From a virus (taxonomy: Duplodnaviria; Heunggongvirae; Uroviricota; Caudoviricetes), in the IMG/VR virus record IMGVR_UViG_2541047764_000008: a stretch of DNA of 32,225 nucleotides; one strand, written 5' to 3'. Position 1 is the first letter of the stretch. Every line of letters begins with the position of its first letter. The position numbers and the translations under genes are program-made. The notes below the pieces were generated by a model, which had not been told where the DNA came from, made no database searches, and saw only the letters and a program-made list of their open reading frames with translations. Below, one piece after another: positions 1 through 32,225 of the stretch.

Positions 1-17
1 AACACGAGCAAACAGAT

Positions 18-45
18 AAAAAAGGGCCAGCCAATTGGCCAGCCC
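18..45 (-). terminator. Rho-independent terminator candidate downstream of the ATPase/HNH cassette
   Basis: On the minus strand, 24-45 reads GGGCUGGCC-AAUU-GGCUGGCCC (9-bp stem with two G-U wobbles) followed by a U6 run (plus-strand A run 18-23). It lies about 180 bp past the stop of the 230..1108 ORF. Confidence 0.5.
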
Positions 46-229
46 TTCTTAACAGGATGTCGCTTAAGCGAAACCTTAGTTAAGACGCTCCTAATCAAAA
101 CTCATAGAAAGCACACATTTACCATATAAAACAATTAGTTAATTTAATTTTTAATGCAGTGAATTGCAATGTTATGCAAGCTCTGCCGCCATACTGCCGC
201 CACTTTAGATTTACTCAAAAATCCCATAC

Positions 230-1108
230 TTACTCATAGGTAGCAGATGAAATTTCAATCATTGACGATCTTTCAAAAATTTGCTTACCATTATTAAGAA
301 ATGTAGGGGACGAGAGAAGGGCATCGAGAGTCAACCATTGCCATAGATCGATCGTATACCTAGATTTAGGATAATCCTTGGATCGGGCATTCAGTAAGTC
401 ACGTTTAATCTCTATCATTTCATGCAATGATAAATTTTTAAAAGTAGCATTCCTGACCAATTCCTTAACTAAGCTAATTGCCTTCGCACTGAACGTGTCT
501 AGTATGCCGAATTTTTTAACATGAAATAACACTCTTTTATATTCAACTGTATTTTTCTCATAGTTAATTTGAAAATAAATTACATTATCCATTTCAGAAT
601 ATACAGCCGTTAACCAATTGTAATTATAGAACTGATCAAATAACGGATGAATTAATTGATTTTCTTTTGAAAGAGAGAAATATTTAGATTTCATTCTATT
701 GCAGTAATCACAAGCAGGGATAAGATTATTATAGGATATAGAAAGGGATGGAAAATCTTCTTTTGGTAAAAAATGATCTAACGTACTGGCTTCACCAATG
801 TGACATAACAAACATTTTTTATTCGGGCTTCGGCGAAGTAATTCATCATAATATTTTCTAGGCTGTGTTCTTTTTTTTGACAGCCTTTCATTATAAAGCC
901 TTAATAACTCAGACGAATCAAAACCTGCCGTCTTTGATATATCTTTAAATTCATAAAGCAGTCCATAAATTGCATGAATTTTGTAAATCTTGTGACAAGC
1001 CCTCAAGTATTCCCCTTGATCCTTTTCTACTTGAGTAAAGTCTCTATTGCGCCGCCCTACTACGCAACTCCTATATACATCATCAAATTTAACATGCATC
1101 CTCTTCAC
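230..1108 (-). CDS. HNH-nuclease-domain protein, second gene of a two-gene ATPase + HNH cassette (Septu PtuB-like architecture)
   Basis: 292-aa ORF with an HNH-type motif at residues ~99-140 (CLLCH...DHFLP...NNLIPACDYCNRMK). Its GTG start overlaps the upstream ATPase stop as GTGA; an ATG at 1099 is an alternative start. Markedly AT-rich by eye. Confidence 0.6.
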   Translation of the reverse strand: MKRMHVKFDDVYRSCVVGRRNRDFTQVEKDQGEYLRACHKIYKIHAIYGLLYEFKDISKTAGFDSSELLRLYNERLSKKRTQPRKYYDELLRRSPNKKCLLCHIGEASTLDHFLPKEDFPSLSISYNNLIPACDYCNRMKSKYFSLSKENQLIHPLFDQFYNYNWLTAVYSEMDNVIYFQINYEKNTVEYKRVLFHVKKFGILDTFSAKAISLVKELVRNATFKNLSLHEMIEIKRDLLNARSKDYPKSRYTIDLWQWLTLDALLSSPTFLNNGKQIFERSSMIEISSATYE

Positions 1109-2583
1109 CCTTTATTTTTTATAGCAGAGTAAACAACAGCACGCCCTTCCAAGCCGATCTGATTATTATATGCATTAAACACTGCACCAGCACTTGTATA
1201 TTTTTTGGAATCCTCCTCCAATAGAGAATAGAAGCCTGACTTTCGCATATCAAGGTTAAAAACTTCAGATGTAATTTCTCCTACCCCCTCGCCGAATGTT
1301 TCTATTGTTGGCCGCTGAAATTCAGCCTCTATATCGCCTGAGCGAAACATTTTCCAAATACAAGCTTTAGGTGTTTCTTGAAGAACTACTGGAGAGTGAG
1401 TGGCAATCACAGCCATCCCATTGTTTTCTTTCAGTATCTCAGACAACGTTCTAATAAATGCGGAAAGTAAAGGAGGATGCAAATGATTCTCTGGCTCATC
1501 GAAGATACATATTGTTTTATTTTCTATTAACTCAATAACATGAGTAATGTAGTATATTACCGCCGCATGCCCTGAGCTCAACGATTTAAAGATGGTTGTT
1601 GATGCATGTGTAAACTCCTCTTGGCTAACAGTGATGAGATTTGAAAGTCCTAAATCCTTAAAATTCACATCAACTTCTAAAGTCTCTATTATTCTAGTCC
1701 ATGTTCCTTTTTTTATTTCAGATCCATATATGCAATTATATAATGACTTGGAAAAATCATTAGCCAAATCATTGTTTATATCCTTTAGTTCTCCGCTACC
1801 TTGTTTATAGAGACCAATATATTTTTTCTTTGTTTGAGTTGTGCTAAACCTAACATCATTAAAATCAACATTTTCAAAAGGTTTATCAAAAACACTTAAT
1901 GAAAAATACAATAACAAACCAAAATCATAAACTGAGACAGGATCACCATTTATCTTTGTTACAACATAATTACTTTTATCGATATTTTCAACAATTGTTC
2001 TTAGTAAATGGCTTTTCCCTACCCCATTACGCCCAATGATTACATGGACATTTTTTGGCGGTTTAGAATCAGATTCCACGATAAAATCCGGCGAAACACC
2101 ATTCTCATAATTAACACGAAAACCGAAATGTCTCAATGAAACGCCAGACTGCAAAATGTCTCTAAACTGCATAACACTTGATATACTTACATATCTAGTG
2201 AGTGAGTCAACAAATACACTTTCATCCCTTACATCTTCAAAAATATTTTCATCATAAACGATATCTCTCAACCTAGTTAAAAGTTTCACCCGAAATTCTT
2301 GAGGCAAATTCTTTAAGGCCGAATAGTATTCTGGAGATTGTCCAAGTGAAAAATAATCATTAGCCAGACTATCAAACTCTGCATCTAACTTTTTATATGT
2401 ATGAACTGATTTCTCTTGTCTCTTAAATCCTATTTTAACCTCTCCAACCTTTACAACATTACTACCATGAGAATAATGTAGTAAAAATGAAGTTTCAAAT
2501 GAAAAATCATTCCAATTGGTTATTGGAGTTAGATATATTATAAATGTCGAATTTGATTGAGGAGGGCCAATTTTTATAAACAT
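1105..2583 (-). CDS. ABC-type (AAA_15/21-like) ATPase with ~180-aa N-terminal extension, first gene of the ATPase + HNH cassette (OLD/PtuA/GajA-like ATPase fold)
   Basis: 492-aa ORF with Walker A GRNGVGKS (184-191), signature-like LSSGH (335-339), Walker B ICIFDEPE (358-365) and H-loop ATHSP (393-397). GGAG sits 6 nt upstream of the ATG. The start is only 37 bp downstream of the int stop on the same strand. AT-rich by eye. Confidence 0.65.
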   Translation of the reverse strand: MFIKIGPPQSNSTFIIYLTPITNWNDFSFETSFLLHYSHGSNVVKVGEVKIGFKRQEKSVHTYKKLDAEFDSLANDYFSLGQSPEYYSALKNLPQEFRVKLLTRLRDIVYDENIFEDVRDESVFVDSLTRYVSISSVMQFRDILQSGVSLRHFGFRVNYENGVSPDFIVESDSKPPKNVHVIIGRNGVGKSHLLRTIVENIDKSNYVVTKINGDPVSVYDFGLLLYFSLSVFDKPFENVDFNDVRFSTTQTKKKYIGLYKQGSGELKDINNDLANDFSKSLYNCIYGSEIKKGTWTRIIETLEVDVNFKDLGLSNLITVSQEEFTHASTTIFKSLSSGHAAVIYYITHVIELIENKTICIFDEPENHLHPPLLSAFIRTLSEILKENNGMAVIATHSPVVLQETPKACIWKMFRSGDIEAEFQRPTIETFGEGVGEITSEVFNLDMRKSGFYSLLEEDSKKYTSAGAVFNAYNNQIGLEGRAVVYSAIKNKG

Positions 2584-2620
2584 ACTTGCTCCTTATAAGC
2601 CAAACCGTAACAAATTACAC

Positions 2621-3643
2621 TTAGAGTAAATTACTTAGAGGATTTAGTGTAACCGCATCCTCTAAATGCTCGGGAGAAAAGTGGGCATATCTCATCGTTT
2701 CACGAATATTAGCGTGGCCAAGAATGCGTTGCAATACAAGGATGTTCCCACCATTCATCATGAAATGAGACGCGAAGGTATGTCGTAATACGTGGGTCTT
2801 TTGCCCTTCAGCCAACTCAATAGATGTCAAAGCTAGCATCTTTTTAAAGTCTTGGTAGCAGGATTTAAACATCCTTCCTTGACGTGTGGATAGTTCGTCA
2901 TAGAGCCATTTAGGAATCGGAACAGTTCTATTCTTCTTACCTTTGGTTTTGGTGAAGGTCAGCTTGTAGGGTGAGAGTTGAGCGCGTGTAAGCCTCTCGG
3001 CTTCTCCCCATCGTGCACCGGTTGCCAAACATACCTTAACAATCATCGTAAGATTTTCTTTGCCATATTGTTCACAGGCTCGGAACAGCTCCGGGAGCTG
3101 AGACAAAGTTAGCCAGGACATTTCTTTCTCAGCTTCTTTGAATACGCGAATCCCGTCCAGTGGATTGGGTAAACTCCACTCCCCTAATCGTCGCAGTTCA
3201 TTGAACACTGCTTCGAGGTATTGCTGCTCGCGATTGACAGTTATAGGTTTGGCGATCCACTTCGCCGGGTCTTTGTGATAGCCGTTGTCTATTTCGCCAC
3301 GTAATCGACGGTCACGGTAATGAGCCCAATCTTTAGCGGTAAGACGAGATGCAATAGGGTCGCCCAACCCGTTACATACGATTTGAAGCTTTGCCAACCG
3401 CGACTTACTGGCTACTAACGCCTGACCGTGCAAATTGTGCCAAAGCTGAATAATCTCACTTAAGCGTCGGCGGTCTTCTTTCTTGCCGAGCCACGGCTTA
3501 TCTTCACTCTCGCTTTTGGTAAATGCTTCGAATGCCTCGGCCTCACCTTTGGTATTGAATTGACGACGTATACGCCGCCCTTCCCGGCCATTTGGATAAA
3601 GCTCACATAACCATTTACCATTTTTTTGCTTACTTACTGTCAT
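2621..3643 (-). CDS. int: Tyrosine integrase (P2/186 Int family)
   Basis: 340-aa ORF; the C-terminus carries the catalytic-region signature HVLRHTFASHF...LGHANIRETMRYAHF typical of tyrosine recombinases. It sits downstream of the repressor on the same strand, as in P2/186. Confidence 0.9.
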   Translation of the reverse strand: MTVSKQKNGKWLCELYPNGREGRRIRRQFNTKGEAEAFEAFTKSESEDKPWLGKKEDRRRLSEIIQLWHNLHGQALVASKSRLAKLQIVCNGLGDPIASRLTAKDWAHYRDRRLRGEIDNGYHKDPAKWIAKPITVNREQQYLEAVFNELRRLGEWSLPNPLDGIRVFKEAEKEMSWLTLSQLPELFRACEQYGKENLTMIVKVCLATGARWGEAERLTRAQLSPYKLTFTKTKGKKNRTVPIPKWLYDELSTRQGRMFKSCYQDFKKMLALTSIELAEGQKTHVLRHTFASHFMMNGGNILVLQRILGHANIRETMRYAHFSPEHLEDAVTLNPLSNLL

Positions 3644-3666
3644 AGCTACACCGAGGCCAAAAAATA

Positions 3667-4005
3667 TTATTCACACAACGCTATAGCTTCACTGAAAATC
3701 GGGCCAATATCAGCGCTTTCTAATGAATCGTTAGGGTCTTTTTTAAGAACTTCTTTTAAATCTCGCCCTTCCATTTTTCCTGATTTGACGGCGTTTTTAG
3801 CCATACCGCTTAGGGGGTATCGTTCATCCGTATCAATGTCATAAACAAAAACGTAGTGACTATTTACACAAGATACCTTTGCATGCTCAAAGGTCAGCGG
3901 CCATTTATCACCAAAAGATTTAATATCAATCTCTTTGAACTTTTCAGCGGCAAAGGTTGAGGAAGAGAGTGCAATACAGATTATTCCAAATAAAAACTTT
4001 TTCAT
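3667..4005 (-). CDS. Small secreted/periplasmic protein (moron) between repressor and integrase
   Basis: 112-aa ORF with a classical N-terminal signal peptide (MKKFLFGIICIALSSSTFA followed by AEK) and two Cys in the mature part. AT-rich relative to flanking int and cI. No family assigned. Confidence 0.55.
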   Translation of the reverse strand: MKKFLFGIICIALSSSTFAAEKFKEIDIKSFGDKWPLTFEHAKVSCVNSHYVFVYDIDTDERYPLSGMAKNAVKSGKMEGRDLKEVLKKDPNDSLESADIGPIFSEAIALCE

Positions 4006-4014
4006 TACTGCTCC

Positions 4015-4878
4015 TTAAACATGCTTTTCCAAGGTAAAGATAACTGCACCTGATGGTGTGATATCAGAGAGATTACATTCAAACTCAGCAGACTTATTTG
4101 ATAGCCTGACCTTTCCACCTGGCATTCTGATTACGTCAAAAATATCGAGCGCACCATCAATGCCAATAAGCCAACGACCATTTCCTATCTTTGAGTTAGA
4201 ACAATCAACAAGCCAAGATGCGCCAACTCCATCAATAAAGACCAACTCATCAATGTTTGCAGGAACCATTGAAAGGTCTGGAGTCCAACGCCCAATATCT
4301 TTTAACTCACCAGCTTCAAGACGACATTTTCTTACTGTTAAGGCGTTAAGTGATTCACCCTCTTTGCTGTCTCGCATTTGGCCTTTTCCTGTAGATAGCC
4401 ACTCTAACGATACGCCAGTATCGAGTGCGCAGGTCACAACCACATCGCCAGGGAAGAAGTCACGCCTAACCCAAGTGCTAATAGTACCGGAAGAAATACC
4501 TAATAAATCACCAAGCTCTTTTTGCATCGTAAAACCATAAGCATCCAGAATCCTACGCAAAACGGTTTTACCGCCGTTCGTCATAATCTCGTCATAAAGC
4601 TCTTTGCCTTTTAACTTGCAACCGACTCGCCCATGATTTGCATTTGCAAGCTCACCACTTACAAGCCAATTAATATCAGCGCCCGTGTCAAGACAACACC
4701 TAACTATGATGTTGCCAGGTATTGCATCGCGTTGAACCCAGCCGCTAACGCTATGTTTCGCGATTCCTAGCAGGTCAGCCAAATCCTTTTGCATCTTGAC
4801 GCCATAGGCTGACATTAAGCGCTCTAATACGCCATTTGACGCACCTATGCGCCACTGAACATCAAGCTCAGAACTCAT
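4015..4878 (-). CDS. cI: CI-like immunity repressor with tandemly duplicated N-terminal HTH domain
   Basis: 287-aa ORF. Residues ~17-75 and ~107-165 are an obvious internal repeat (LERLMSAYGVKMQKDLADLLGIAKHSVSGWVQRDAIPGNIIVRCCLDTGADINWLVSGE versus LRRILDAYGFTMQKELGDLLGISSGTISTWVRRDFFPGDVVVTCALDTGVSLEWLSTGK), each resembling the 186-type CI HTH module, followed by a C-terminal domain. It is divergent from the early operon. Confidence 0.7.
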   Translation of the reverse strand: MSSELDVQWRIGASNGVLERLMSAYGVKMQKDLADLLGIAKHSVSGWVQRDAIPGNIIVRCCLDTGADINWLVSGELANANHGRVGCKLKGKELYDEIMTNGGKTVLRRILDAYGFTMQKELGDLLGISSGTISTWVRRDFFPGDVVVTCALDTGVSLEWLSTGKGQMRDSKEGESLNALTVRKCRLEAGELKDIGRWTPDLSMVPANIDELVFIDGVGASWLVDCSNSKIGNGRWLIGIDGALDIFDVIRMPGGKVRLSNKSAEFECNLSDITPSGAVIFTLEKHV

Positions 4879-4907
4879 AAAAACCCCTACAGATAATTTT
4901 ATGGGTG

Positions 4908-4936
4908 TTTACAGAAAACTTTTTACGATCTATAGT
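4908..4936 (+). promoter_or_regulatory. Candidate early rightward promoter (pR/Pe-like) in the lysis-lysogeny switch region
   Basis: TTTACA (4908-4913), 17-bp spacer, TATAGT (4931-4936), upstream of an AGGAG RBS and the ATG at 5000. It lies in the intergenic region between divergent cI and the early operon. The partner leftward promoter was not confidently located. Confidence 0.45.
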
Positions 4937-4999
4937 GGCACTTATCGACCAAGATGCACACCACTGCACTACATTTCAAACAACAGGAGATAATGCGAT

Positions 5000-5353
5000 A
5001 TGTCAGATGCAAAATCAATCCCGCTGCATGACGCACAAAACTTACAAAATCAAACTGTATTGCTAGACGCTGGTCAGTTCAATGCGCTTGTAACCATGAT
5101 GCAGCTATCCATGCAAAACATGATTCGTACAGCGATGTTAGACACCATGTCAGTAAAAGACTTCGCCGCCGCCCGTGGCGTTAGCGAGCGTCTGGTCTGG
5201 CAATGGATTGATGAGGGCGTCCTTCTCAAAGCTCCCACCAAAGATGTTACCAGCAAAGAAAAAGCCGCTAAGCGTGGCCGCACCCTTATCAACGTCAAAG
5301 CATGGCGTGACAAACTGACCCAGCAAGCTATCGATTGCCGTTATATCAACTAA
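5000..5353 (+). CDS. Apl/Cox-like early regulator (HTH DNA-binding protein)
   Basis: 117-aa ORF, first gene of the rightward early operon in the position of P2 cox / 186 apl. It has a central HTH-like segment (VKDFAAARGVSERLVWQWIDEG) and an AGGAG RBS. Confidence 0.5.
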   Translation: MSDAKSIPLHDAQNLQNQTVLLDAGQFNALVTMMQLSMQNMIRTAMLDTMSVKDFAAARGVSERLVWQWIDEGVLLKAPTKDVTSKEKAAKRGRTLINVKAWRDKLTQQAIDCRYIN

Positions 5354-5403
5354 CAGTCATCGCTTAACTGAACTTGATTTTGCAAGTTAAAGGGAGTTAC
5401 AGC

Positions 5404-5913
5404 ATGTTAGATTTTCGTGTTTCGTCACATGCGCACTTTGACGAGGCCTGCAGAAAATTCGCAGCTACTCATAACGTGAAAGAACTAGCGAATAAAGCCG
5501 GAATCAAGCCGCATACGCTTTACAACAAACTCAACCCAGAACAGCCGCACCAGTTAACGCCGCGTGAAATCTGGACGCTGACAGACTTGACCGAAGACTC
5601 GACCCTCGTCGATGGTTTTCTGGCGCAGATCCATTGTCTGCCATGCGTACCGGTCAACGAACTGGCAAAAGAGAAACTGCAATCCTACGTCATGCGCGCA
5701 ATGAGTGAACTTGGCGAACTGGCAAGCGGTGCAGTTTCCGACGACCGCCTCACGCCAGCCAGAAAACAAAACATGATTGCTAGCGTAAATGCGGGGATTC
5801 GCATGTTGTCATTATCGGCAATGGCGCTGCATGCGCGTCTGCAAACTAATCCCGCTATGTCGAGCGTGGTCGATACCATGAGCGGTATTGGTGCATCCTT
5901 CGGGTTGATTTGA
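5404..5913 (+). CDS. cII: CII-like transcriptional activator (186 CII / CP76 family)
   Basis: 169 aa from the ATG at 5404 (AAAGGGAG RBS 8 nt upstream); the ORF track's longer form starts at a TTG at 5374. Its position after the apl-like gene and segments such as LTDLTEDSTLVDGFLAQIHCLPCVP match my recollection of 186 CII. Confidence 0.6.
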   Translation: MLDFRVSSHAHFDEACRKFAATHNVKELANKAGIKPHTLYNKLNPEQPHQLTPREIWTLTDLTEDSTLVDGFLAQIHCLPCVPVNELAKEKLQSYVMRAMSELGELASGAVSDDRLTPARKQNMIASVNAGIRMLSLSAMALHARLQTNPAMSSVVDTMSGIGASFGLI

Positions 5914-9237: not shown

Positions 9238-9420
9238 ATGGTTGGCGAACATTTCAGCCGAACGCAGCAAAAGTGGGCTTGTGTGCAATTTATTGCCGAG
9301 GTATCTCTGATTGCAAACTGCAAGCCATCAGACTTAAAGCTCGCGCTCACTCTCATTGCAGACCTAGCAAACAGCGAAAATAACGAAACCGAAGATGATA
9401 ATTTTTATAAGGCTGATTAG
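9238..9420 (+). CDS. Small SOS-regulated ORF, possible N-terminal part of a Tum-like antirepressor
   Basis: 60-aa ORF with a strong RBS (GGGAGG, 5-nt spacer) directly downstream of the LexA box. It is in the same frame as the DinI-like ORF, separated only by TAG (9418-9420) plus one codon. Confidence 0.45.
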   Translation: MVGEHFSRTQQKWACVQFIAEVSLIANCKPSDLKLALTLIADLANSENNETEDDNFYKAD

Positions 9421-9423
9421 ATT

Positions 9424-9657
9424 ATGAGAATCAATATCACGTTGGATAAAGAGCAAAAAATTAGTCAGGCAACGTTGGATGCACTTGAGGCTGAGCTGTA
9501 CCGCAATCTTCAACCTATTTACCCAAAGACTGCTATCCGCATTCGTAAGGGCTCAGCTAATGGCGTTGAGTTAAGCGGTTTGAAACTGGACGAAGATAAA
9601 AAACGAGTAATGGAAATCATGCAGCAGGTATGGGAGGACGATAGCTGGCTGCATTAA
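9424..9657 (+). CDS. DinI-like protein (possible C-terminal/Tum72-like part of a Tum antirepressor)
   Basis: 77-aa ORF (MRINITLDKEQ...WEDDSWLH) resembling E. coli DinI in length and in its acidic Trp-containing C-terminus. It lies downstream of the LexA-controlled promoter. Confidence 0.7.
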   Translation: MRINITLDKEQKISQATLDALEAELYRNLQPIYPKTAIRIRKGSANGVELSGLKLDEDKKRVMEIMQQVWEDDSWLH

Positions 9658-9726
9658 CAAACGCCGTCGGTGCTGAATCTTGCTTTCAGTGCTGGCGGGG
9701 TTGAAACTGGCTCCGAGAGGCGTTAG
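9658..9726 (+). repeat. Imperfect direct repeat, copy 1 (~70 bp)
   Basis: AACGCCGTCGGTGCTGAATCTTGCTTTCAGTGCTGG...GGCGTTAG; shares the first ~40 nt almost exactly with the copy at 10062-10130. Confidence 0.6.
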
Positions 9727-9850
9727 TTCTACCTTTCAAACTTTCTCGATGTTTTATTGGTTACACACCGGTGATTAATGGGACGTTACCTTAGAGGATT
9801 TTATAGTGGCGCTTTGACAGCACTGAATAAAATTCATTGAGGGCGATAAT

Positions 9851-10060
9851 ATGCATCGACTACCGGGCGAAATTCCGCAGCACAAAACTAAAAGCATAAA
9901 ACTGATGGCTATCGTTCATCGCTTGCAGACGATAATGGTCAATGAGAACCTGACGCCAGCGGAATTGGTCGGGTGTGCAGAAATAGTCAGGGATAACTAC
10001 GATAAGCTGAACGATATCAGCAGGCCGACACAATATGCGCCACCACCATGTCGAAGATAG
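9851..10060 (+). CDS. Hypothetical small protein flanked by direct repeats
   Basis: 69-aa ORF with a GAGGG RBS 7 nt upstream of the ATG. No recognisable motif. Confidence 0.35.
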   Translation: MHRLPGEIPQHKTKSIKLMAIVHRLQTIMVNENLTPAELVGCAEIVRDNYDKLNDISRPTQYAPPPCRR

Positions 10061-10061
10061 C

Positions 10062-10130
10062 GAACGCCGTCGGCGCTGAAACTTGCTTTCGGTACTGGAG
10101 GGTTGAACAACGAGTCCCTCTAGGGGTTAG
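10062..10130 (+). repeat. Imperfect direct repeat, copy 2 (~70 bp)
   Basis: AACGCCGTCGGCGCTGAAACTTGCTTTCGGTACTGG...GGGGTTAG; a partner of the copy at 9658-9726. Confidence 0.6.
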
Positions 10131-10272
10131 TCTGTTCCGTAGAGATTGGCCCAAACCGGCACTATTAAAGCCGGTTTTCGTATGTCCAATCTAAAGAATG
10201 GGGGCTGACATCCCACCATCAGATTTGTGTTATTTTAGTGCTACTCATTCGTCATTAGACATTGTAAGGGCA

Positions 10273-10989
10273 ATGTATATGAAACCAAGCACACACTGCG
10301 TTTATTGCGGTGTTCTCATGAATAAGGTTGAAAATCACCCCCACTGCCGCTCAGTTGAACACATGATTCCGCAAGTTTCAGTCTCCATTCATAGAACCAA
10401 CGGCGAAGGTGATTTCTATGTATGCAAAAAGTGCAATGGCGATAAAAGCCGAATTGACGAGGTGTTAGGTGTCATTTGCCGCATGGTAGGAGAGCACTCA
10501 ACAGGCAGCTTTGATGCTGTTAATAAATTCCATAATGCGCTTAAAAGAAAAGACTCGAAATTTCGTGAAGCATTCCAGAGTGTTAGGCATACAAAAAAAG
10601 GTGCGCAGATAACATTACCCCTAAATGGTAGGGAGATTTACCAATACGGCACCTGGTTAGCCAAGGGAGTATTTTTCTTAGAGTATGGGCAATTGTTGAC
10701 TGTAGATAAATTAATTTGGATTAATATCGTTCGCCACGATGAAGTAATGGCTATTAAAGAAATGTATAGAAATGAACGTGGCTCTGAGGCATTTGATGAT
10801 TTATCGAAGAATAGCAACATTCCAAATATTAATGGCGAGTCGTTTCTGATTGTTGGCCAGGATGCCCGAGAAATGTTTATTTGCTTCAATAGAGTAATGA
10901 TGTTTCATATAAAGATACTGGATAGAACGTTTATTAATCAAAAAAAATGCAAAAAAGCCCTACTCAATCTGGAAAAAAGGGTTCGATAA
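10273..10989 (+). CDS. HNH-nuclease-domain protein with uncharacterised ~170-aa C-terminal domain (moron in the A-to-cos accessory hotspot)
   Basis: HNH motif at the N-terminus (CVYCG...HPHCRSVEHMIPQ...FYVCKKCNGDKS). AT-rich by eye and sharply different from flanking phage DNA. Start uncertain: ATG at 10273 or 10279; the track's longest form starts at 10198. Confidence 0.55.
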   Translation: MYMKPSTHCVYCGVLMNKVENHPHCRSVEHMIPQVSVSIHRTNGEGDFYVCKKCNGDKSRIDEVLGVICRMVGEHSTGSFDAVNKFHNALKRKDSKFREAFQSVRHTKKGAQITLPLNGREIYQYGTWLAKGVFFLEYGQLLTVDKLIWINIVRHDEVMAIKEMYRNERGSEAFDDLSKNSNIPNINGESFLIVGQDAREMFICFNRVMMFHIKILDRTFINQKKCKKALLNLEKRVR

Positions 10990-11012
10990 GATAAATAAGA
11001 TGTAATGAATGT

Positions 11013-11034
11013 GTGCATGCCACTGCATTTTTTT
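11013..11034 (+). terminator. Weak terminator candidate downstream of the HNH moron
   Basis: Short hairpin (TGCA/TGCA stem) followed by a T7 run (11028-11034). Confidence 0.3.
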
Positions 11035-11134
11035 GCATGCGTTGATCCAACCGCCAAAACATAAGGAGTACCGGTAGTAGCTTAGCTAAAGCGAGGTCAT
11101 GCAACTGCATTAAAACCGACCCATAAAGCGGGCA

Positions 11135-11153
11135 GGCGTGGCGGGGAAAGCAT
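11135..11153. other. cos: cos-like 19-mer (candidate cohesive-end site of the P2/186 family)
   Basis: GGCGTGGCGGGGAAAGCAT closely matches the 19-nt cohesive end I recall for P2/186 (GGCG[A/T]GGCGGGGAAAGCA[C/T]). It sits in a non-coding GC-rich stretch upstream of the portal end of the late region, as expected. Confidence 0.5.
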
Positions 11154-11357
11154 TGCGCGCCAGCGGTGGTGCGTATTATTAAAAATTATCGTCTGAGAAC
11201 GTCGTGACGGCGCTGTAGTGGCCGGGTGTGATCGTGGGCGCGTGGTGCGTCTGTGGCGTGGTGCTAAAGGATGGGATCAGTTGCACAATTTTACGGTTTC
11301 GCTTTGGCTAATATCCATATTGAGACTTTATGTTCCCCACAACAGTTGGAGGCTTTA

Positions 11358-11582
11358 ATGGATAACTATCATATTACAAAAGATGGCGATAAGTGGAAGT
11401 TGCAAAAAGAGGGCAATGACCGCCCTAGCAAGACCGCGCCCACAAAGGCCGAGCTGATTAAAACAACATCTGAGTTTATGTCGAACAAAACAGGCTCGGT
11501 CAAAATTCACAAGGAAGATGGGAAAATTCAGGAAGAACGCACTTATCAGAGAAAAGATGATCCTAAAAAGTCTAAGGGCTAA
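11358..11582 (+). CDS. Small conserved hypothetical protein (DUF2188-like)
   Basis: 74 aa from the ATG at 11358 with a GGAGG RBS 5 nt upstream. The pattern KDGDKWKL...G...IHKEDGKIQEERTY...DP resembles small DUF2188-type proteins (from memory). Confidence 0.4.
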   Translation: MDNYHITKDGDKWKLQKEGNDRPSKTAPTKAELIKTTSEFMSNKTGSVKIHKEDGKIQEERTYQRKDDPKKSKG

Positions 11583-11590
11583 CATAGCAA

Positions 11591-11611
11591 AAGCCGCCAA
11601 AATGGCGGCTT
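11591..11611. terminator. Palindromic hairpin between convergent genes (likely terminator for the leftward Q-P operon)
   Basis: AAGCCGCCA-aaa-TGGCGGCTT perfect 9-bp stem. On the minus strand it is followed by a U-rich run, immediately after the Q stop. Confidence 0.5.
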
Positions 11612-22336: not shown

Positions 22337-22937
22337 CCGGCTATTACCCGTTGGCTCGTCGCCGCTGGAGGTCGCCGCCGCCGCTGCGTTCTCTGAGATT
22401 CAGCGCGTGCCGGTACCGCTGCGCACCCTGTGGAACTGGCGCACCTGCCCGGTAAAGCTGCTGCCGTATCTGGCGTGGGCGCTGTCGGTCGACAGGTGGG
22501 ATGAGAAATGGCCGGAGGCGACAAAGCGCAACGTCTGCGCGTCCTCGTTTTTCGTCCATCAGCACAAAGGCACCATCAGCGCATTGCGTCGGGTCGTCGA
22601 GCCGCTCGGCTTTCTGATTGAGGTGCGCGAGTGGTGGCAACTCGACGAGGAGCCAGGCACATTCCGCCTCGTTGTTGGCGTCCTCGACAGCGGCATCACT
22701 GACGAAATGTATCAGGAGCTTGAGCGCCTGATTGAAGACGCCAAACCGGCAAGTCGCCACCTGACCGGGCTGGCTATCAGTCTGAGCTCGACCGGCGAAC
22801 TGTATGTCGGCGCGGGATGCTATCACGGCGACGCGCTGACTGTTTACCCCTACACCCCCGAGGAGATTGTCGTCGGCGGTGAATATTACCCGGCCTCGGC
22901 CATCCATTTGATTGATAACCTGAGAGTGAACGCATGA
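22329..22937 (+). CDS. I: Baseplate/tail protein (P2 gpI-like)
   Basis: 202 aa; overlaps the J stop and H start; in the P2 I position. Confidence 0.8.
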   Translation: MNDRLLPVGSSPLEVAAAAAFSEIQRVPVPLRTLWNWRTCPVKLLPYLAWALSVDRWDEKWPEATKRNVCASSFFVHQHKGTISALRRVVEPLGFLIEVREWWQLDEEPGTFRLVVGVLDSGITDEMYQELERLIEDAKPASRHLTGLAISLSSTGELYVGAGCYHGDALTVYPYTPEEIVVGGEYYPASAIHLIDNLRVNA

Positions 22938-23914
22938 CCGCAAAATATTTTGCCATTCTGACCAATCAGGGCGCGGCGCGGCTGGCGAACGCGGCGGCAC
23001 TCGGTACCAAACTCAACCTGACGCAGATGGCCGTCGGTGATGCGAATGGTACGTTGCCGACCCCTGATCCGGCGCAGACGAAGCTCATTAACCAGAAACG
23101 CATCGCGCCGCTGAACCTGCTGACCGTTGACCCGGCCAATACCAGTCAGATTATCGCGGAACAGATTATTCCCGAGAATGAAGGTGGTTTCTGGATCCGC
23201 GAGATTGGTCTCTATGACGATGATGGTATTCTGATTGCCGTGGCGAACTGTCCGGAGACCTACAAGCCACAACTGCAGGAGGGAAGCGGTCGCACGCAGA
23301 CCATTCGCATGATTCTGATTGTGTCGAGCACATCGGCAATCACCCTGAAAATCGACCCGGCAGTCGTGCTGGCAACGCGCCAGTATGTCGACGACAAGAT
23401 TATCGAGGTGAAAGGATATGCTGATGACCTGATGAAAAAACATGTTGAGGCCGCCAATCCACACAAGCAGTACCCGTTAATCGCTAATGCTCTGAAAGAA
23501 ATGGTTGACGCGGGACTGGCCGGCGACGTTCTTAAAAACCTTGGTTTGGGAGAAGCGGCAAAACGGGATGTGGGGACAGGGGAAAATCAGATACCGGACA
23601 TGGCCTCTTTTGCCAGTGGTGATGGATGGATGAAATTACCCAACGGGAAAATCCTGCAATATGGTCGTGGTGCGGTTACGCCGACATTATCGACGCAAAC
23701 AATGAGAATTACATTCAGCATCCCTTTCCCCAAAAAAGCGGACTGCGCCATGCTTACTCATTCTGGTGATGGCGGTGCGCCTTTAGGCGCTGGGCGAGGG
23801 TTCGTGATGACTGCAGAAGGCCCAACGTTAACCGGCTTTAATTCTGCTTACAGAACGTCATCAACCAGCGACACGGTATCGATGAATTACAGTTGGTGGG
23901 CTGTTGGTGAGTAA
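22934..23914 (+). CDS. H: Tail fibre protein (P2 gpH-like) with short, switchable C-terminal receptor-binding region
   Basis: 326 aa. The N-terminal ~200 aa (MTAKYFAILTNQGAARLANAA...) is typical of the conserved P2-family fibre N-terminus. The C-terminal part begins at an invertase crossover-like site (23529-23554). Confidence 0.85.
   Translation: MTAKYFAILTNQGAARLANAAALGTKLNLTQMAVGDANGTLPTPDPAQTKLINQKRIAPLNLLTVDPANTSQIIAEQIIPENEGGFWIREIGLYDDDGILIAVANCPETYKPQLQEGSGRTQTIRMILIVSSTSAITLKIDPAVVLATRQYVDDKIIEVKGYADDLMKKHVEAANPHKQYPLIANALKEMVDAGLAGDVLKNLGLGEAAKRDVGTGENQIPDMASFASGDGWMKLPNGKILQYGRGAVTPTLSTQTMRITFSIPFPKKADCAMLTHSGDGGAPLGAGRGFVMTAEGPTLTGFNSAYRTSSTSDTVSMNYSWWAVGE
23529..23554. promoter_or_regulatory. 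hix/gix-like inversion crossover site (left), inside the tail-fibre gene
   Basis: TTCTTAAAAACC-TT-GGTTTGGGAGAA; the left half matches the Hin hix half-site TTCTTGAAAACC. The right half GGTTTGGGAGAA is identical to the inverted copy at 25439-25464. Confidence 0.65.
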
Positions 23915-23925
23915 TTTTATTCAGG

Positions 23926-24378
23926 GTGATTTATATGAACGAATATGTTTATAGCGCAAGGCATAATGCTTTTTTCCCTGTGGATATGATTGATAAATAT
24001 AAATCAGAGGGATGGGATTTATCAGACGCTAAGGAAGTAAATCAAAATATTATCAGTGAGTTTATGGCTGAACCGCCACAAGGAAAAATCCGTATTGCCG
24101 GAGATGATGGGCTGCCTGCGTGGGCAGATATTCCTCCACCCACGCATGAAGAGCTTATTGAAATTACTGAATCAGAAAGACAGCTACTAATTAACCAGGC
24201 CAACGAATACATGAACAGTAAGCAATGGCCCGGTAAAGCCGCTATTGGTCGTCTGAAAGGTGAGGAACTGGCGCAATATAATTTGTGGCTGGATTATCTG
24301 GATGCACTGGAGCTGGTTGATACCTCCAGTGCGCCAGATATTGAATGGCCTACGCCTCCGGCAGTTCAGGCCAGATGA
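23926..24378 (+). CDS. G: Tail fibre assembly protein (P2 gpG-like)
   Basis: 150 aa, AT-rich, with a Tfa-type C-terminus (...APDIEWPTPP...); directly downstream of H. Confidence 0.8.
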   Translation: MIYMNEYVYSARHNAFFPVDMIDKYKSEGWDLSDAKEVNQNIISEFMAEPPQGKIRIAGDDGLPAWADIPPPTHEELIEITESERQLLINQANEYMNSKQWPGKAAIGRLKGEELAQYNLWLDYLDALELVDTSSAPDIEWPTPPAVQAR

Positions 24379-24952
24379 CATCCGGCGCGGTGCTGGTATC
24401 TGTTGCCGTCACCGCGTCAATGTAATCCAGCACAGCGTTAAGTCTGGTTGTTTCTGCCTGCGTCAGTTTACGTCCGGCCTGCAATTTCAGTTGAATCAGA
24501 CTAATGGAAGCCATTGCAGCATCAATCAGTGACTGGCGCTGTGCTTCTGCCGCGTCTACTGCGGCGCTATGCTGTGCCTCAGTATCGGTCACCCATTTCT
24601 CACCATCCCATTTATCGTATGGCGTTAATGGGGCGATAGTGGTTGTATTTTCAGGGTAATCACCCGGAGCGGTGATTTCTTTTGATTCTCCTGTTTTGGT
24701 GCTATAGACCGTTTCACCGCGATGGTCTGGCACATATTCCCATGAATTTAAATCTACAGAGCGACAGATTGCATAACCAGCTTTATGTGTACCTGGTGCA
24801 TCCAGACAGGAACATGCCGGGATACCGACTCCGACAGCGAGATATTCAGTTGATGTAGAAATATATTCCCGCGTTTCGCCATCATAGTTATGTACGATGA
24901 TTTCCCCATCATTTAAAGCGTAACCGTCTTTTCCCAAAATAGCCTGTTCCAT
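24350..24952 (-). CDS. Alternative tail fibre assembly protein (U'-like) in the invertible segment
   Basis: 200-aa ORF on the opposite strand, convergent with G; the C-terminus (...TAPDVIWPELPEA) parallels the gpG C-terminus. Confidence 0.7.
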   Translation of the reverse strand: MEQAILGKDGYALNDGEIIVHNYDGETREYISTSTEYLAVGVGIPACSCLDAPGTHKAGYAICRSVDLNSWEYVPDHRGETVYSTKTGESKEITAPGDYPENTTTIAPLTPYDKWDGEKWVTDTEAQHSAAVDAAEAQRQSLIDAAMASISLIQLKLQAGRKLTQAETTRLNAVLDYIDAVTATDTSTAPDVIWPELPEA

Positions 24953-25447
24953 TTATGCAGCCCTCACAATGTAGTTAAATGCAATGTTTCGCGGGCTACC
25001 ATCACCGGCGCCGGAACTGACATGATTTGTTCTATCCATTCGTTTACTGTCATTTGTTGTTCCACTCCCATCCTTCCACGAATACAATAACCCGCCATCG
25101 CCAATGCTCAACTGCACCGCAAATACGGATGATGTACCTAATTCACCAACATCTCTAGCCATGAGTGGGTTCCCTGTCCATCCATGCATTTCATGGTTAT
25201 GTTCAAGGATAGATGCTGCCTGACTTGAAAGCAGCAGTCTCGCGGAATCAACACCTCGCCCATCATCCCACCCGCGAATAAACTCACCGCGCAAATCCGG
25301 TAATTTTAACTTTGGGTAAGCCTTTGCCAGTTTTGGGTACTCTTCGGCAGAAAAAGGTGCACCGTTGCATTTCAGCCAGCCTGTTGGTGGTGTGGCTGAA
25401 GGCCACGGAACAGGCACACCAACGGGTAACGCTGAGCCTTCTCCCAA
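24953..25447 (-). CDS. Alternative tail-fibre C-terminal receptor-binding segment (Sv'-like), promoterless in current orientation
   Basis: The open frame begins at the right crossover site with no ATG (the track uses a TTG). Inversion at the core dinucleotide would fuse H in frame: ...KNLGLGE-GSALPVGVPVPWPS... The PxPWP..GW...G..F..YP.L motif is typical of Mu/P1-type fibre variable parts. Confidence 0.65.
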   Translation of the reverse strand: MGEGSALPVGVPVPWPSATPPTGWLKCNGAPFSAEEYPKLAKAYPKLKLPDLRGEFIRGWDDGRGVDSARLLLSSQAASILEHNHEMHGWTGNPLMARDVGELGTSSVFAVQLSIGDGGLLYSWKDGSGTTNDSKRMDRTNHVSSGAGDGSPRNIAFNYIVRAA

Positions 25448-25464
25448 ACCAACCTTTTAGAAAA
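25439..25464. promoter_or_regulatory. hix/gix-like inversion crossover site (right)
   Basis: The plus strand reads TTCTCCCAAACC-AA-CCTTTTAGAAAA; its reverse complement shares GGTTTGGGAGAA and the central TT with the left site. It lies immediately upstream of the invertase remnant. Confidence 0.65.
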
Positions 25465-25518
25465 TGCAGATATTCCGTTCAGCTGGCATGATCCCGACTT
25501 TTTACCGGGTTATTTCTC

Positions 25519-25761
25519 ATGTTTATCGGTTATGTACGCGTATCAACAAATGACCAGAACATCGCATTACAGCGAAATGAACTGGAGTGCGCAGGATGTG
25601 AGCTGATTTTCGAAGATAAAATCAGCGGCAAAACATCAGACTGGCCGGGGCTAAAGAGGTTACTCAGAACCTTGTCAGAGGGCGATACGCTTGTGGTCTG
25701 GAAACTGGATCGCCTCGGGTATCTCAACGCAATACAAAAAATTTCCCGCATCAGTTGCTGA
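25519..25761 (+). pseudogene. Truncated serine DNA invertase (Hin/Gin/Cin/Pin family) remnant
   Basis: The first ~66 codons match the Hin N-terminus closely (GYVRVSTNDQN...GDTLVVWKLDRLG, including the catalytic Ser region). Similarity is then lost and the ORF stops after 80 codons; a full invertase is about 190 aa. Confidence 0.7.
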
Positions 25762-31059: not shown

Positions 31060-32225
31060 TAACGGGGATGTCAATTGACGCCGGTGCCAGCCTTGCACCG
31101 GCTTTTATGCTGACGCTGAACAGTCAGGACATTACCAGCAACTTCAGCGACCGGCTGATTTCTCTCACCATGACGGACAATAGGGGCTTTGAAGCTGACC
31201 AGCTCGACATTGAGCTCGATGACACCGATGGGAAAGTCGAGTTACCCCTGCGCGGGGCAGTGCTGACGTTGTGGCTTGGCTGGCAGGGTTCGGCGCTGCT
31301 GAATAAGGGGGATTTTACGGTCGATGAGATTGAGCACCGGGGGGCTCCTGATACCCTGATCATCCGGGCGCGCAGCGCGGACTTTCGCGGCACGCTAAAT
31401 TCCAGGCGTGAAGAGTCATGGCACGACACCACCATCGGCGAACTGGTCAGTACCATCGCAAAGCGCAACAAACTGACGGCCAGCATTGCGGAATCGCTGA
31501 AAAAAATCCCGGTACCGCATATCGACCAGTCGCAGGAATCCGACGCGGTATTTTTGAGTCGACTGGCTGACCGCAACGGGGCAACGGTATCGGTGAAGGC
31601 AGGGAAACTGTTGTTTCTGAAAGCCGGTAGTGCGATGACGGCCAGCGGCAAACCCGTCCCGCAAATGACGCTGACCCGCAGTGATGGTGACCGTCATCAG
31701 TTTGCCATTGCCGACCGTGGGGCTTATACCGGCGTCACTGCTAAATGGTTGCACACCAAAGACCCGAAGCCACAAAAGCAGAAAGTAACGCTGAAACGCA
31801 AGCCAAAAGAGAAGCACCTGCGCGCACTGGAACCCCCAAAAGCAAAGCCGGTCAGCAAAAAGACAAAGGTCAAAAAAGAACAGGAAGCACGTGAGGGTGA
31901 GTACATGGCCGGTGAAGCCGATAACGTGCTGGCGCTGACGACGGTCTATGCCTCAAAGGCACAGGCGATGCGCGCCGCTCAGGCTAAGTGGGATAAACTG
32001 CAGCGAGGCGTTGCGGAGTTTTCAATCACACTGGCGCTAGGGCGAGCGGATTTATTTCCTGAGACGCCTGTACGCGTGTCAGGCTTTAAGCGCGTCATAG
32101 ACGAGCAGGCATGGTTAATCAGCAAGGTGACCCACAACCTCAATAATAACGGTTTCACGACGGGCTTAGAGCTTGAGGTTAAACTCTCCGATGTGGAGTA
32201 CAGCTCAGAAGAAAATGAGGAGTGA
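31056..32225 (+). CDS. D: Tail protein D (P2 gpD-like, late control gene D)
   Basis: 389 aa with an ATGA overlap with the U stop; the last late gene before the expected ogr/att region, which lies beyond the window. Confidence 0.85.
   Translation: MITGMSIDAGASLAPAFMLTLNSQDITSNFSDRLISLTMTDNRGFEADQLDIELDDTDGKVELPLRGAVLTLWLGWQGSALLNKGDFTVDEIEHRGAPDTLIIRARSADFRGTLNSRREESWHDTTIGELVSTIAKRNKLTASIAESLKKIPVPHIDQSQESDAVFLSRLADRNGATVSVKAGKLLFLKAGSAMTASGKPVPQMTLTRSDGDRHQFAIADRGAYTGVTAKWLHTKDPKPQKQKVTLKRKPKEKHLRALEPPKAKPVSKKTKVKKEQEAREGEYMAGEADNVLALTTVYASKAQAMRAAQAKWDKLQRGVAEFSITLALGRADLFPETPVRVSGFKRVIDEQAWLISKVTHNLNNNGFTTGLELEVKLSDVEYSSEENEE

Follow-up and report, generated by a model that had tools for sequence, protein, structure and literature searches.

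At the left of a 32,225-nt viral sequence (the window, by which we mean the whole stretch of DNA analyzed), a run of minus-strand genes led by a phage repressor raises the questions of where the prophage ends and how the genes beyond its integrase are expressed. The first-pass annotation had regarded these genes as a single lysogenic operon with cargo downstream of and between its core genes, and had posed the end of the prophage as an open question. Comparison with host and phage genomes identified the region as the left terminus of a P2/186-type prophage that is inserted in the final codons of rplS, a host gene. The prophage is most probably an element of about 32.6 kb that belongs to the P2 family (186/PSP3 type) and was inserted into the last four codons of rplS by its tyrosine integrase. 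To the best explanation as a whole, that is prophage type, cassette slot and read-through transcription taken jointly, we assign a probability of about 65%. The features that define the boundary are as follows.

1-77, host DNA of the yfiB-rplS intergenic spacer, which matches E. coli genomes and an empty site (L023)
19-50, minus strand, intrinsic terminator of host rplS (trmD operon), with a 14-bp stem (dG -22.3 kcal/mol) followed by TTTTTT
78-90, attL core AGTTAAGACGCTC, consisting of the last four rplS codons and the first base of the stop codon
91-202, phage P arm of att, with two direct arm-type repeats TGCCGCCA at 184-191 and 195-202
203-2636, minus strand, cargo insert of 2434 bp and 33.4% GC, delimited by homology breakpoints with related loci (L002 and L001)

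Each of the 5426 complete E. coli genomes searched had a match to bases 1-90, annotated there as the 3' end of rplS, with 96-99% identity. The first-pass annotation had proposed that an empty integration site be compared and that a duplicated core be sought beyond the D/ogr end. AGTTAAGACGCTC was the only segment common to attL of the window, attB of the empty site and attR of related lysogens (L011 and L014), and the right ends of such lysogens were found to read D, ogr, terminator, arm repeats, hairpin, core and rplS. Within the window the core is present in a single copy; no second copy was detected with up to two mismatches, including in the 37-bp gap downstream of int, which had been correctly described as free of an att site. 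The accompanying expectation of an att site directly after int, as in P2/186, does not fit 186, where orf69 separates the two. A tRNA scan of the window found none, and thus att is not a tRNA site; an Rfam scan of the whole window gave no family at the gathering threshold.

Positions 1 to 202/205 of the window were about 89-90% identical to E. coli prophages that are related to this one but have other cargo or none, and in phage Midge, for which a complete genome is deposited, the P arm is contiguous with ogr, a terminator and the core. The arm repeats share a CGCCA centre with the 186 Int arm consensus YAYCGCCAYTY. Integrase relatives of 72-94% identity use the same rplS core, and in 20 species-representative genomes with this core the int stop codon is 58-101 bp away from it. 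Searches of viral contigs and JGI metagenomes with exact attP-junction patterns gave 0 matches and a degenerate pattern returned attL junctions only, a result that is uninformative either way; the architecture of attP was taken from phage Midge instead. Since the core and the P arm both lie on the host side of the ATPase and HNH genes, this pair is inside the prophage, and the excised circle would carry the cassette together with an attP junction that reads ...TTATCAGTTAAGACGCTCCTAATC....

The genes and candidate regulatory sites of the region are listed below.

230-1108, minus strand, ptuB-like HNH nuclease gene (292 aa if started at the GTG, 289 aa if started at the ATG of position 1099)
1105-2583, minus strand, ptuA-like ABC/AAA_15-21 ATPase gene, 492 aa (Pfam AAA_21 7e-18, AAA_15 1.2e-14)
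2584-2620, minus strand, 37-nt spacer between int and ptuA; its Shine-Dalgarno sequence, AAGGAG, lies 7 nt before the ATG
2621-3643, minus strand, int, tyrosine integrase of 340 aa (Pfam Int_N and Phage_integrase)
2706-2734, minus strand, weak promoter-like site TTGCAA-17-TAATAT in the 3' end of int (8/12 match)
3667-4005, minus strand, DUF2511/YebY-like secreted protein gene, 112 aa (Pfam DUF2511 3.6e-14; PHROG 2950)
4015-4878, minus strand, cI, CI-type immunity repressor (Pfam Phage_CI_repr in two stretches and Phage_CI_C)
4908-4936, plus strand, candidate early lytic promoter pR, TTTACA-17-TATAGT (10/12 match), which faces pL
4990-5018, minus strand, candidate lysogenic promoter pL, TTGATT-17-CATTAT (8/12 match)
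5000-5353, plus strand, apl/cox-like rightward early gene (PHROG 3554, and in addition a weak Cox-like match)
5374-5913, plus strand, cII, rightward early gene (Pfam Phage_CP76 1.1e-46)

The ORF coordinates confirmed the packed layout that had been described, with cI, the YebY-like gene, int, the ATPase gene and the HNH gene in this order on the minus strand, separated by gaps of 9, 23 and 37 bp and then a 4-bp overlap (GTGA), which becomes a gap of +5 if the HNH gene starts at the ATG chosen by gene callers. On the basis of the Pfam matches to CI and CP76 and the candidate promoters, the region has a pR/pL switch of 186 type, in which CI is read leftward and Apl/Cox and CII rightward. Internal repeat alignment revealed that the N-terminal HTH domain of CI is tandemly duplicated. 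The integrase is 340 aa compared to 349 aa in its relatives; the C-termini diverge past ...NPLS, and the catalytic RY..H region is intact.

The gene between cI and int was also present in phages Midge, SW9, SI22 and 613R3 and in E. coli prophages. It is a conserved member of the lysogeny module in this lineage and not variable cargo. Residues Cys46 and Cys111 of the encoded protein correspond to the YebY disulfide (PMC8689200).

By contrast, the two genes downstream of int are cargo, as had been proposed: they form a 2.4-kb insert of low GC content that close relatives lack. The insert takes the place of 12 bp that are present in a cargo-less relative, and it provides int with a new 3-codon tail and stop codon. 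Its breakpoints (202/203 and 2636/2637) also bound unrelated cargo in prophage Ecol_545, and only 12 bp are found between them in MRSN346647. The cassette is 33% GC vs 44.5% for int-cI. A single core and no second integrase among the ORFs of positions 1-2620 distinguish it from a separate element, and the promoter and terminator of its own by which a classical moron is recognized were not detected around the cargo in motif scans.

Both cassette proteins were strongly matched by models of defence systems. For the ATPase, the best PADLOC match was PDC-M01A (2e-158), followed by a full-length match to PtuA model PDLC00282 (1e-133), and Walker A (GRNGVGKS at 184), LSSG (335) and DEPE (362) motifs were identified. 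Its match to solved PtuA structures was only distant, and it scored 46.8 bits against the NCBIfam PtuA (retron Ec78) model, for which the cut-off is 500. The HNH protein matched Pfam HNH (1.2e-5, above cut-off), PADLOC PDC-M01B (7.7e-142) and PHROG 10378 HNH endonuclease (1e-105), and carries CLLC99, DH111 and CDYCN133 motifs; its 25 best PADLOC matches were all to PDC-M01B, and a sequence search gave no match to solved structures. The two genes are adjacent and co-oriented, with the ATPase gene preceding the HNH gene and overlapping it by 4 bp, as expected of Septu. Taken together, the sequence matches indicate that the pair is Septu-like and related to Ea59/Ea31 of phage lambda, and it may act as an anti-phage system.

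The cassette spreads with the phage. Among 10 E. coli assemblies, the 5.27-kb module differed by 0-5 SNPs, compared to 124-165 SNPs in the adjacent 6.9-kb host flank. Assembly GCA_000457895.1 was identical to the window over positions 1-5353. No match to the cassette was detected by blastn in the 5426 complete E. coli genomes, and it is thus not host core DNA; the exact cassette protein was present in many draft assemblies. Between the same conserved flanks, relatives were found to have no cargo (L002), an unrelated gene (L001), other defence candidates (FRG/PDC-S15 and RelA_SpoT/PDC-S33) or other proteins. Of 123 Int-relative loci with enough sequence, 26 were found to have an ORF of 150 aa or more that reads in the direction of int and whose start is -38 to +133 nt from the stop codon of int (about 15 of these within 20 nt), compared to 6 with a convergent one. 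A related prophage (Ecol_545/L113 type) has its cargo on the opposite strand, and the slot can thus be occupied without need for read-through. In Cronobacter turicensis, a remnant at the same rplS site (L188) was found to retain intact ptuA and ptuB (90% amino acid identity) after decay of the prophage; upstream of them, all that is left of int is a decayed 3' stretch of about 400-430 bp, accompanied by an IS3 element, and neither cI nor pL is present. Therefore, something other than pL can flank the retained cassette.

The promoters and terminators of the region were examined by motif scans, which may miss weak promoters and to which Rho-dependent termination is not predictable. The candidate pL has the geometry of the annotated 186 pL, with its -10 element 5 bp before the apl start and its -35 element 13 bp inside apl. 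From pL to ptuA, no promoter match of at least 9/12 was detected apart from one inside cI. The cassette contributes only 53 nt upstream of ptuA, which contain a strong ribosome-binding site; no usable promoter or terminator of its own was detected in these scans, the int-ptuA spacer contained neither the att core nor a workable promoter, and there was no hairpin between the ptuB stop codon and the att core. The only strong minus-strand terminator-like site in positions 1-5500 was the hairpin at 50..19; two weak ones (-8.0 and -3.3) lie within coding sequence. The first-pass annotation had placed a strong terminator-like hairpin of the operon at 18-45; its strength was borne out, but it is the host rplS/yfiB terminator and not the phage's, as it falls within the 90 bases common to all complete E. 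coli genomes and is identical in the empty site. Neither promoter-like nor terminator-like motifs in 1-5500 were more frequent than in shuffled controls (19 vs 14.1 +/- 4.2 and 6 vs 3.8 +/- 2.2, respectively), so that the argument for an operon is based on gene packing and comparative data.

Since no promoter or terminator was detected in the insert, its transcription by read-through from pL, as a 3' extension of the lysogenic transcript, is the best explanation, if an unproven one. The idea that accessory genes ride on this transcript is likewise the most economical reading of the sequence. By this model, cI, the YebY-like gene, int, ptuA and ptuB would form one leftward lysogenic operon, with the 2.4-kb cassette inserted exactly between the end of the integrase catalytic domain and the Int arm-type sites of attP. 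The cI-int mRNA would begin at pL while lysogeny is maintained and, by analogy to 186, at a CII-activated pE while it is being established. In the prophage, the transcript would cross attL and end at the host rplS terminator, and in the circular phage it would end at the phage hairpin across the core. After integration this phage hairpin would terminate rplS, such that the two terminators are swapped. Upon induction, pR and Apl would silence pL and the cassette would probably be shut off. A further step would be to view the int-att slot of P2/186-like phages not simply as a landing place for cargo but as a dedicated site of operon extension, in which defence genes are spliced in frame-adjacent to the stop codon of int and expressed solely as the 3' tail of a CI-controlled mRNA, and the host rplS terminator is co-opted by the swap; this generalization is tentative, and we place it somewhat below even odds.

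The evidence was also weighed for other arrangements. An abrupt drop in GC content at 2636 and the P2-based expectation of att directly after int could suggest that the ATPase/HNH block is outside the prophage, as a host island or tandem element with the junction between int and the cassette. Such a junction, which the first-pass annotation had named as the outcome that would speak against its view, is excluded by attL at 78-90 and by the arm repeats and P arm on the host side of the cassette, positioned as they are beside int in cargo-less relatives and in Midge. The lack of a second core, the lack of an integrase in the cassette, its absence from complete E. coli genomes at blastn sensitivity and its near identity, together with cI-int, across divergent host backgrounds all point the same way, and we regard this arrangement as extremely improbable. 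The further possibility that the cassette and the YebY-like gene, whether transcribed or not, are inert and serve neither defence nor conversion is also improbable. The literature searched gave no experimental function for lambda ea59/ea31 (for this subfamily it yielded only vector and engineering papers, and no report of anti-phage activity) or for phage DUF2511 genes, and the HNH protein matched no solved structure and the ATPase only distantly, which would be compatible with inertness. By contrast, neither ORF is disrupted and the Walker A/B and HNH motifs are complete, the pair outlasted the prophage in Cronobacter, PADLOC defence models were matched strongly here, other defence candidates occupy the same slot in relatives, and the YebY-like gene is conserved between cI and int across the phage lineage.

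The read-through model itself has weak points. The pL candidate matches at only 8/12 positions, and 120 nt before ptuA the 3' end of int contains a weak sigma-70-like site (also 8/12). The Cronobacter remnant, which has the cassette but neither cI nor pL, leaves room for an independent promoter. The pair could thus be inside the prophage and expressed mainly from a constitutive promoter of its own (2734-2706), independent of CI and Apl and perhaps besides read-through. This site is kept in the Cronobacter remnant beside intact ptuAB, and homologues of 55-57% identity in conjugative elements have upstream spacers of 250-350 bp, indicating that the family can use its own promoter. However, the site lies in the codons for LQRILGHANI, the conserved box II of the integrase, and this constraint on the protein explains its conservation. 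Sites that match as well as this one turn up roughly once per 130 nt of this AT-rich strand, the IS3 element of the remnant could supply outward transcription, and the 26 co-oriented cargos near the int stop codon favour coupling to int. On balance, main expression from this site is judged unlikely, and read-through from pL is preferred.

If the int-att slot is such a dedicated site, defence would operate both in the established lysogen and while lysogeny is being set up, and would be silenced on induction, which would spare the replicating phage DNA from the nuclease. If the read-through model is true, defence genes of this slot would be wired to the lysis-lysogeny switch, with consequences for how they are cloned and tested, as no promoter would be included in a 'native promoter' construct limited to the cassette. 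The locus provides a fully resolved case, with exact coordinates for the att core, arm, cassette breakpoints and candidate promoters. Both cargo positions have already been described for the P2/186 phage family, and in this respect the example is fairly ordinary. What is new is that most int-att cargo reads in the direction of int and abuts this gene, and that terminators would be swapped at rplS upon integration.

Compared to known systems, the region is most similar to phage 186, with which it shares face-to-face pR and pL promoters, the same pL geometry, a CI-type repressor, Apl-like and CII (CP76) proteins, an int gene that follows cI in the same orientation, an additional ORF that separates int from attP, and CGCCA-centred arm repeats. 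The 186 record describes a lysogenic operon cI-int-orf69 with a predicted terminator beyond the attP core; a terminator so placed, as is also predicted here, is separated from the operon by integration. The differences are that the att site of 186 is in tRNA-Ile and not the rplS 3' end, and that the present element has a YebY-like gene between cI and int, a duplicated HTH domain in CI, an Apl-like protein of PSP3 type, and a 2.4-kb two-gene cassette at the position of the 83-aa orf69. In P2, the Pc operon encodes C and Int (PMC3936717). The int-att position of P2-like prophages is described in a 2026 study as a minor hotspot that holds about 3% of P2 defence systems (NAR 2026, PMC13586616), with cargo inside the element between int and att, as here. 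A term search of that article found no mention of orientation, terminator, rplS, PtuA or Septu, and the present locus adds exact slot boundaries, abutment to the int stop codon and terminator exchange. In phage K139, the annotated order is cI-orf2-glo-int with PL driving the operon, such that a gene for a periplasmic protein, in K139 an exclusion gene, is directly upstream of int in both lysogenic operons. Septu can occur in the cI-int interval of K139-like phages, which has been described as a hotspot (Rousset et al. 2022, PMC9122126); by contrast, the cI-int gene of our element is conserved and has no sequence similarity to Glo, and the Septu-like genes follow int rather than precede it.

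With respect to the cassette, its ATPase plus HNH nuclease operon and the strong full-length PtuA match are shared with Septu, and the best PADLOC matches differ in being to the candidate system PDC-M01 and not to PtuB models. Septu is reportedly a two-gene system of PtuA and PtuB (Doron et al. 2018). The homologous pair ea59-ea31 of phage lambda, for which no defence role was found reported, has the same gene order and the same 4-bp overlap, with 37% identity between the PtuA-like protein and Ea59 (over 95% of its length) and 32% between the PtuB-like protein and Ea31. The lambda pair is likewise located beside attP and reads in the same direction as int, but in lambda attP separates it from int, such that after integration the pair is found at the far prophage end. 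The long-unexplained ea59 and ea31 genes of lambda are thereby tied to a defence-type cassette.

Five consecutive genes were found on the minus strand at the left end of the window, each with an identity assigned by Pfam.

4015-4878, minus strand: cI (two Phage_CI_repr domains and Phage_CI_C)
3667-4005, minus strand: gene for a signal-peptide protein of 112 aa (DUF2511)
2621-3643, minus strand: int (Int_N and Phage_integrase)
1105-2583, minus strand: ptuA, ATPase of 492 aa (AAA_21/AAA_15)
230-1108, minus strand: ptuB, HNH protein of 292 aa (HNH domain)

The ORF table bears out the spacing reported in the first-pass annotation (9, 23 and 37 bp, then an overlap of 4 bp). In gene calls made on identical contigs the HNH gene begins with the ATG at 1099, and the last junction becomes +5 rather than an overlap. 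That annotation had proposed one long lysogeny-expressed transcript with accessory genes riding on the repressor promoter, and had been unable to place the prophage end. Its observation was correct and its interpretation largely sound, and the boundary question is decisively settled by comparative data.

When the left end was compared by megablast to 5426 complete E. coli genomes, a match was found in every genome but only for bases 1-90, annotated as the rplS 3' end. Alignment of attL (the window), attB (L023, a site without a prophage) and attR (the right ends of two related lysogens, L011 and L014) revealed a common 13-bp core, AGTTAAGACGCTC, at window 78-90, which spans the final four codons of rplS and the first base of its stop. 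Host DNA lies to the left of this core and consists of the yfiB-rplS spacer with the terminator of rplS; to the right is phage DNA. The hairpin reported at 18-45 is indeed present and is the sole strong minus-strand terminator-like structure in 1-5500 (50..19; a 14-bp stem followed by TTTTTT; -22.3 kcal/mol), the two others in this range being weak (-8.0 and -3.3 kcal/mol) and inside coding sequence. From the position of the core and the host DNA on its left, however, it is the terminator of host rplS and not a phage signal. No second core was detected within the window with two mismatches allowed; thus, the ATPase and HNH genes belong to the prophage and are located between int and the P arm.

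91-202: phage P arm, delimited by comparison with related prophages, arm repeats and phage Midge

Host spacer, core and arm taken together (1-202/205) are approximately 89-90% identical to related E. coli prophages. The arm holds two TGCCGCCA direct repeats (184-191 and 195-202) similar to the Int arm sites, centred on CGCCA, in the annotation of phage 186, and in the deposited complete genome of phage Midge the arm is contiguous with ogr, terminator, arm repeats, hairpin and core. At attR, rplS gains from the phage a new stop codon (TGA) and a hairpin terminator, GAAACAAGGGGTTAGCGAATTGCTAACCCCTTTTT (-23.1 kcal/mol). Gene D ends at 32225, and in relatives about 440 bp separate the D stop from the attR core, so the element is estimated at about 32.6 kb. 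Lysogen L011 is a deletion derivative that retains both att ends. The phage side of attR (L014 12015-12105; L011) mimics host sequence downstream of rplS past the 13-bp core, with a AAAAAGGG...CCC hairpin and a GGATGT.GC motif similar to those of window 19-90 and at matching distances. Judged from sequence, attP looks as if it carries a diverged copy of an rplS 3' end.

The cassette occupies a sharply bounded slot. A cargo-less relative, MRSN346647 (L002), is homologous to window 1-202 and 2637-5000 with 12 bp between, and Ecol_545 (L001) has identical breakpoints with an unrelated 269-aa gene on the opposite strand between them. The GC content of the insert (203-2636) is 33%, compared to 44.5% in int-cI and 51% in the whole window. 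Where relatives lack cargo, the int frame continues into the arm repeats (...NPLSLYVGDNMAAEVA); in the window int ends ...NPLSNLL, and its final three codons and stop codon come from the insert. Thus, the slot lies precisely where the integrase catalytic domain meets the arm-type sites. In relatives without this cargo (L002 6173-6203; L001 7380-7412), the last ten or so codons of int overlap the arm-type repeats, with ...MAAEVA* encoded by TGGCGGCA repeats; cargo insertion (window 2621-2636) swaps this tail for unrelated short ones, and phage spread apparently continues. Among species-representative genomes, the distance from the int stop to the core is 58-101 bp in 20 Int relatives with the same core (72-94% identity), and two Int relatives bear cargo of about 1 kb.

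An index of public assemblies lists the exact ATPase in 165 blocks, with the context yfiB, ptuB ptuA int yebY cI ... wherever this was read. Across ten of these loci, the 5.27-kb module from the apl-like gene to ptuB differs by 0-5 SNPs compared to 124-165 SNPs in the adjoining 6.9 kb of host DNA, the pattern expected of recent lysogenisation of diverged strains.

The ATPase matched PADLOC models PDC-M01A (2e-158) and a PtuA (1e-133), the HNH protein matched PDC-M01B (8e-142), and the Walker A, signature and Walker B motifs of the former and the CxxC...DH...CxxCN HNH motif of the latter are intact. The ATPase is related only distantly to the solved retron-type PtuA, and no sequence match to the HNH protein was found in the PDB. 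The pair is homologous to ea59-ea31 of the b region of phage lambda (NC_001416, 3120-5584; 37% and 32% identity), which shares the gene order and the 4-bp overlap, adjoins attP and is oriented as int; no defence role for ea59/ea31 was found in the literature searched. By its sequence the pair is classed as Septu-like, of the Ea59/Ea31 type, and only partly as a Septu system in the strict sense. Homologues at 55-57% identity were found in conjugative elements. A ptuA-ptuB pair with 90% aa identity is present in Cronobacter turicensis (L188, JAANQL010000006.1, 2780-8600), where the same rplS site holds the remnant of a decayed prophage arranged as attR arm and phage terminator, an unrelated gene for a 316-aa membrane protein, IS3, an int pseudogene of about 400 bp, intact ptuA-ptuB and attL. 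Here the defence cassette seems to have outlasted the phage.

The DUF2511/YebY-like gene, which had been counted as cargo, is not variable cargo: phages Midge, SW9, SI22 and 613R3 and many E. coli prophages all have it between int and cI. The phage neighbourhood of such genes was previously remarked on in a YebY structure paper (PMC8689200). Its positional analogue is Glo of Vibrio phage K139, a periplasmic exclusion protein encoded directly upstream of int in the PL operon, to which the YebY-like protein has no sequence similarity. An envelope function expressed in the lysogen, such as exclusion or conversion, is suggested with low confidence. In a clade of Int relatives at 57-63% identity (IMG/VR contigs L168-L186), a convergent yebY-like gene (about 111-115 aa) lies 300-700 nt past int; it is taken to be the host yebY, which coincides curiously with the yebY-like gene carried by the phage in the window.

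The switch is of the 186 type, with the following candidate promoters.

4908-4936, plus strand: candidate pR, TTTACA-17-TATAGT
5018-4990, minus strand: candidate pL, TTGATT-17-CATTAT

The geometry of the pL candidate relative to the apl-like gene is exactly that of the annotated 186 pL (-10 located 5 bp before apl, -35 located 13 bp inside). The CI repressor (287 aa) has tandem, clearly alignable Phage_CI_repr HTH domains (residues ~13-76 and ~99-165) before its C-terminal domain, compared to about 192 aa encoded by 186 cI (22433-23011); a longer C-terminal domain has been described for PSP3-type CI in an earlier paper.

We consider read-through the probable main driver of cassette expression (probability about 0.65). 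The cassette would be transcribed from pL and from pE, the CII-activated establishment promoter by analogy with 186, and the leftward transcript would end at the co-opted host rplS terminator; integration exchanges two similar minus-strand terminators, the phage's passing to rplS and the host's to the phage operon. This reading is favoured by the lack of independent signals, by precedent and by a census of the slot. The scan detected no strong terminator between pL and the host terminator, and no hairpin was found between the ptuB stop and the att core. The cassette contributes only 53 nt upstream of ptuA, with AAGGAG 7 nt before the ATG, and the sole -10-like hexamer in these 53 nt would place the transcription start downstream of the ribosome-binding site. 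As precedents, the 186 record annotates a lysogenic operon cI-int-orf69 with a predicted terminator beyond the attP core, K139 PL is annotated as driving cI-orf2-glo-int, and P2 Pc controls C and Int (PMC3936717). The census covered 160 loci encoding Int relatives, 123 with at least 450 bp after int. In 26 of the 123, an ORF of 150 aa or more in the orientation of int begins -38 to +133 nt from the int stop (about 15 of them within 20 nt); these cargos include FRG-domain (PADLOC PDC-S15) and RelA/SpoT-like (PDC-S33) proteins. A convergent ORF ending within 150 nt of the stop was found in 6/123, some possibly host genes; 91/123 had neither. This orientation bias, in loci that are not independent, fits cargo grafted onto the int transcript. 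The opposite-strand cargo of the Ecol_545 type indicates that read-through is not obligatory for the slot.

An internal promoter driving the cassette independently is considered less likely than read-through. A promoter-like site (TTGCAA-17-TAATAT, 2734-2706, an 8/12 match) does lie in the 3' end of int and is preserved in the Cronobacter remnant, where ptuAB is intact without cI or pL. However, the site coincides with the codons of the conserved LQRILGHANI stretch, which makes its conservation uninformative, and matches of this quality are common on the AT-rich minus strand. In the remnant itself, expression may be driven by this site or by the adjacent IS3.

Elsewhere in the prophage, the tail-fibre region (23535-25761) looks like an invertible segment: 21-nt inverted repeats (23535-23555 and 25438-25458; 90% complementary) enclose, on the minus strand, assembly genes at 24350-24952 and, at 24953-25447, a second version of the fibre C-terminus with a Collar domain. 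Next to it, the ORF for a DNA invertase (25519-25761) has no more than 80 aa and aligns with only the first ~67 residues of invertases; the switch may thus be locked in one state. The gpA-gpQ interval (9400-11600), classically the tin/old hotspot of P2, contains a DinI-like gene (9424-9657), a low-GC ORF of 263 aa (10198-10989; PHROG 31193) with weak PtuB-like HNH matches (E~1e-4) and a DUF2188 gene (11271-11582); its content differs in sister prophages with the same Septu module, e.g., L006.

Both cargo positions noted in the first-pass annotation are already published. Mobilisation of int-att cargo with the phage is argued in PMC13586616 (2026), in which a term search found no mention of orientation, terminator, rplS, PtuA or Septu, and Rousset et al. 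2022 (PMC9122126) describe a cI-int hotspot, Septu included, in K139-like phages. We found no earlier description of the exact limits of the slot, of cargo that abuts the int stop tightly and in the same orientation, of the exchange of terminators at rplS or of the relationship to lambda ea59/ea31. In its logic the operon follows those of 186 and K139.
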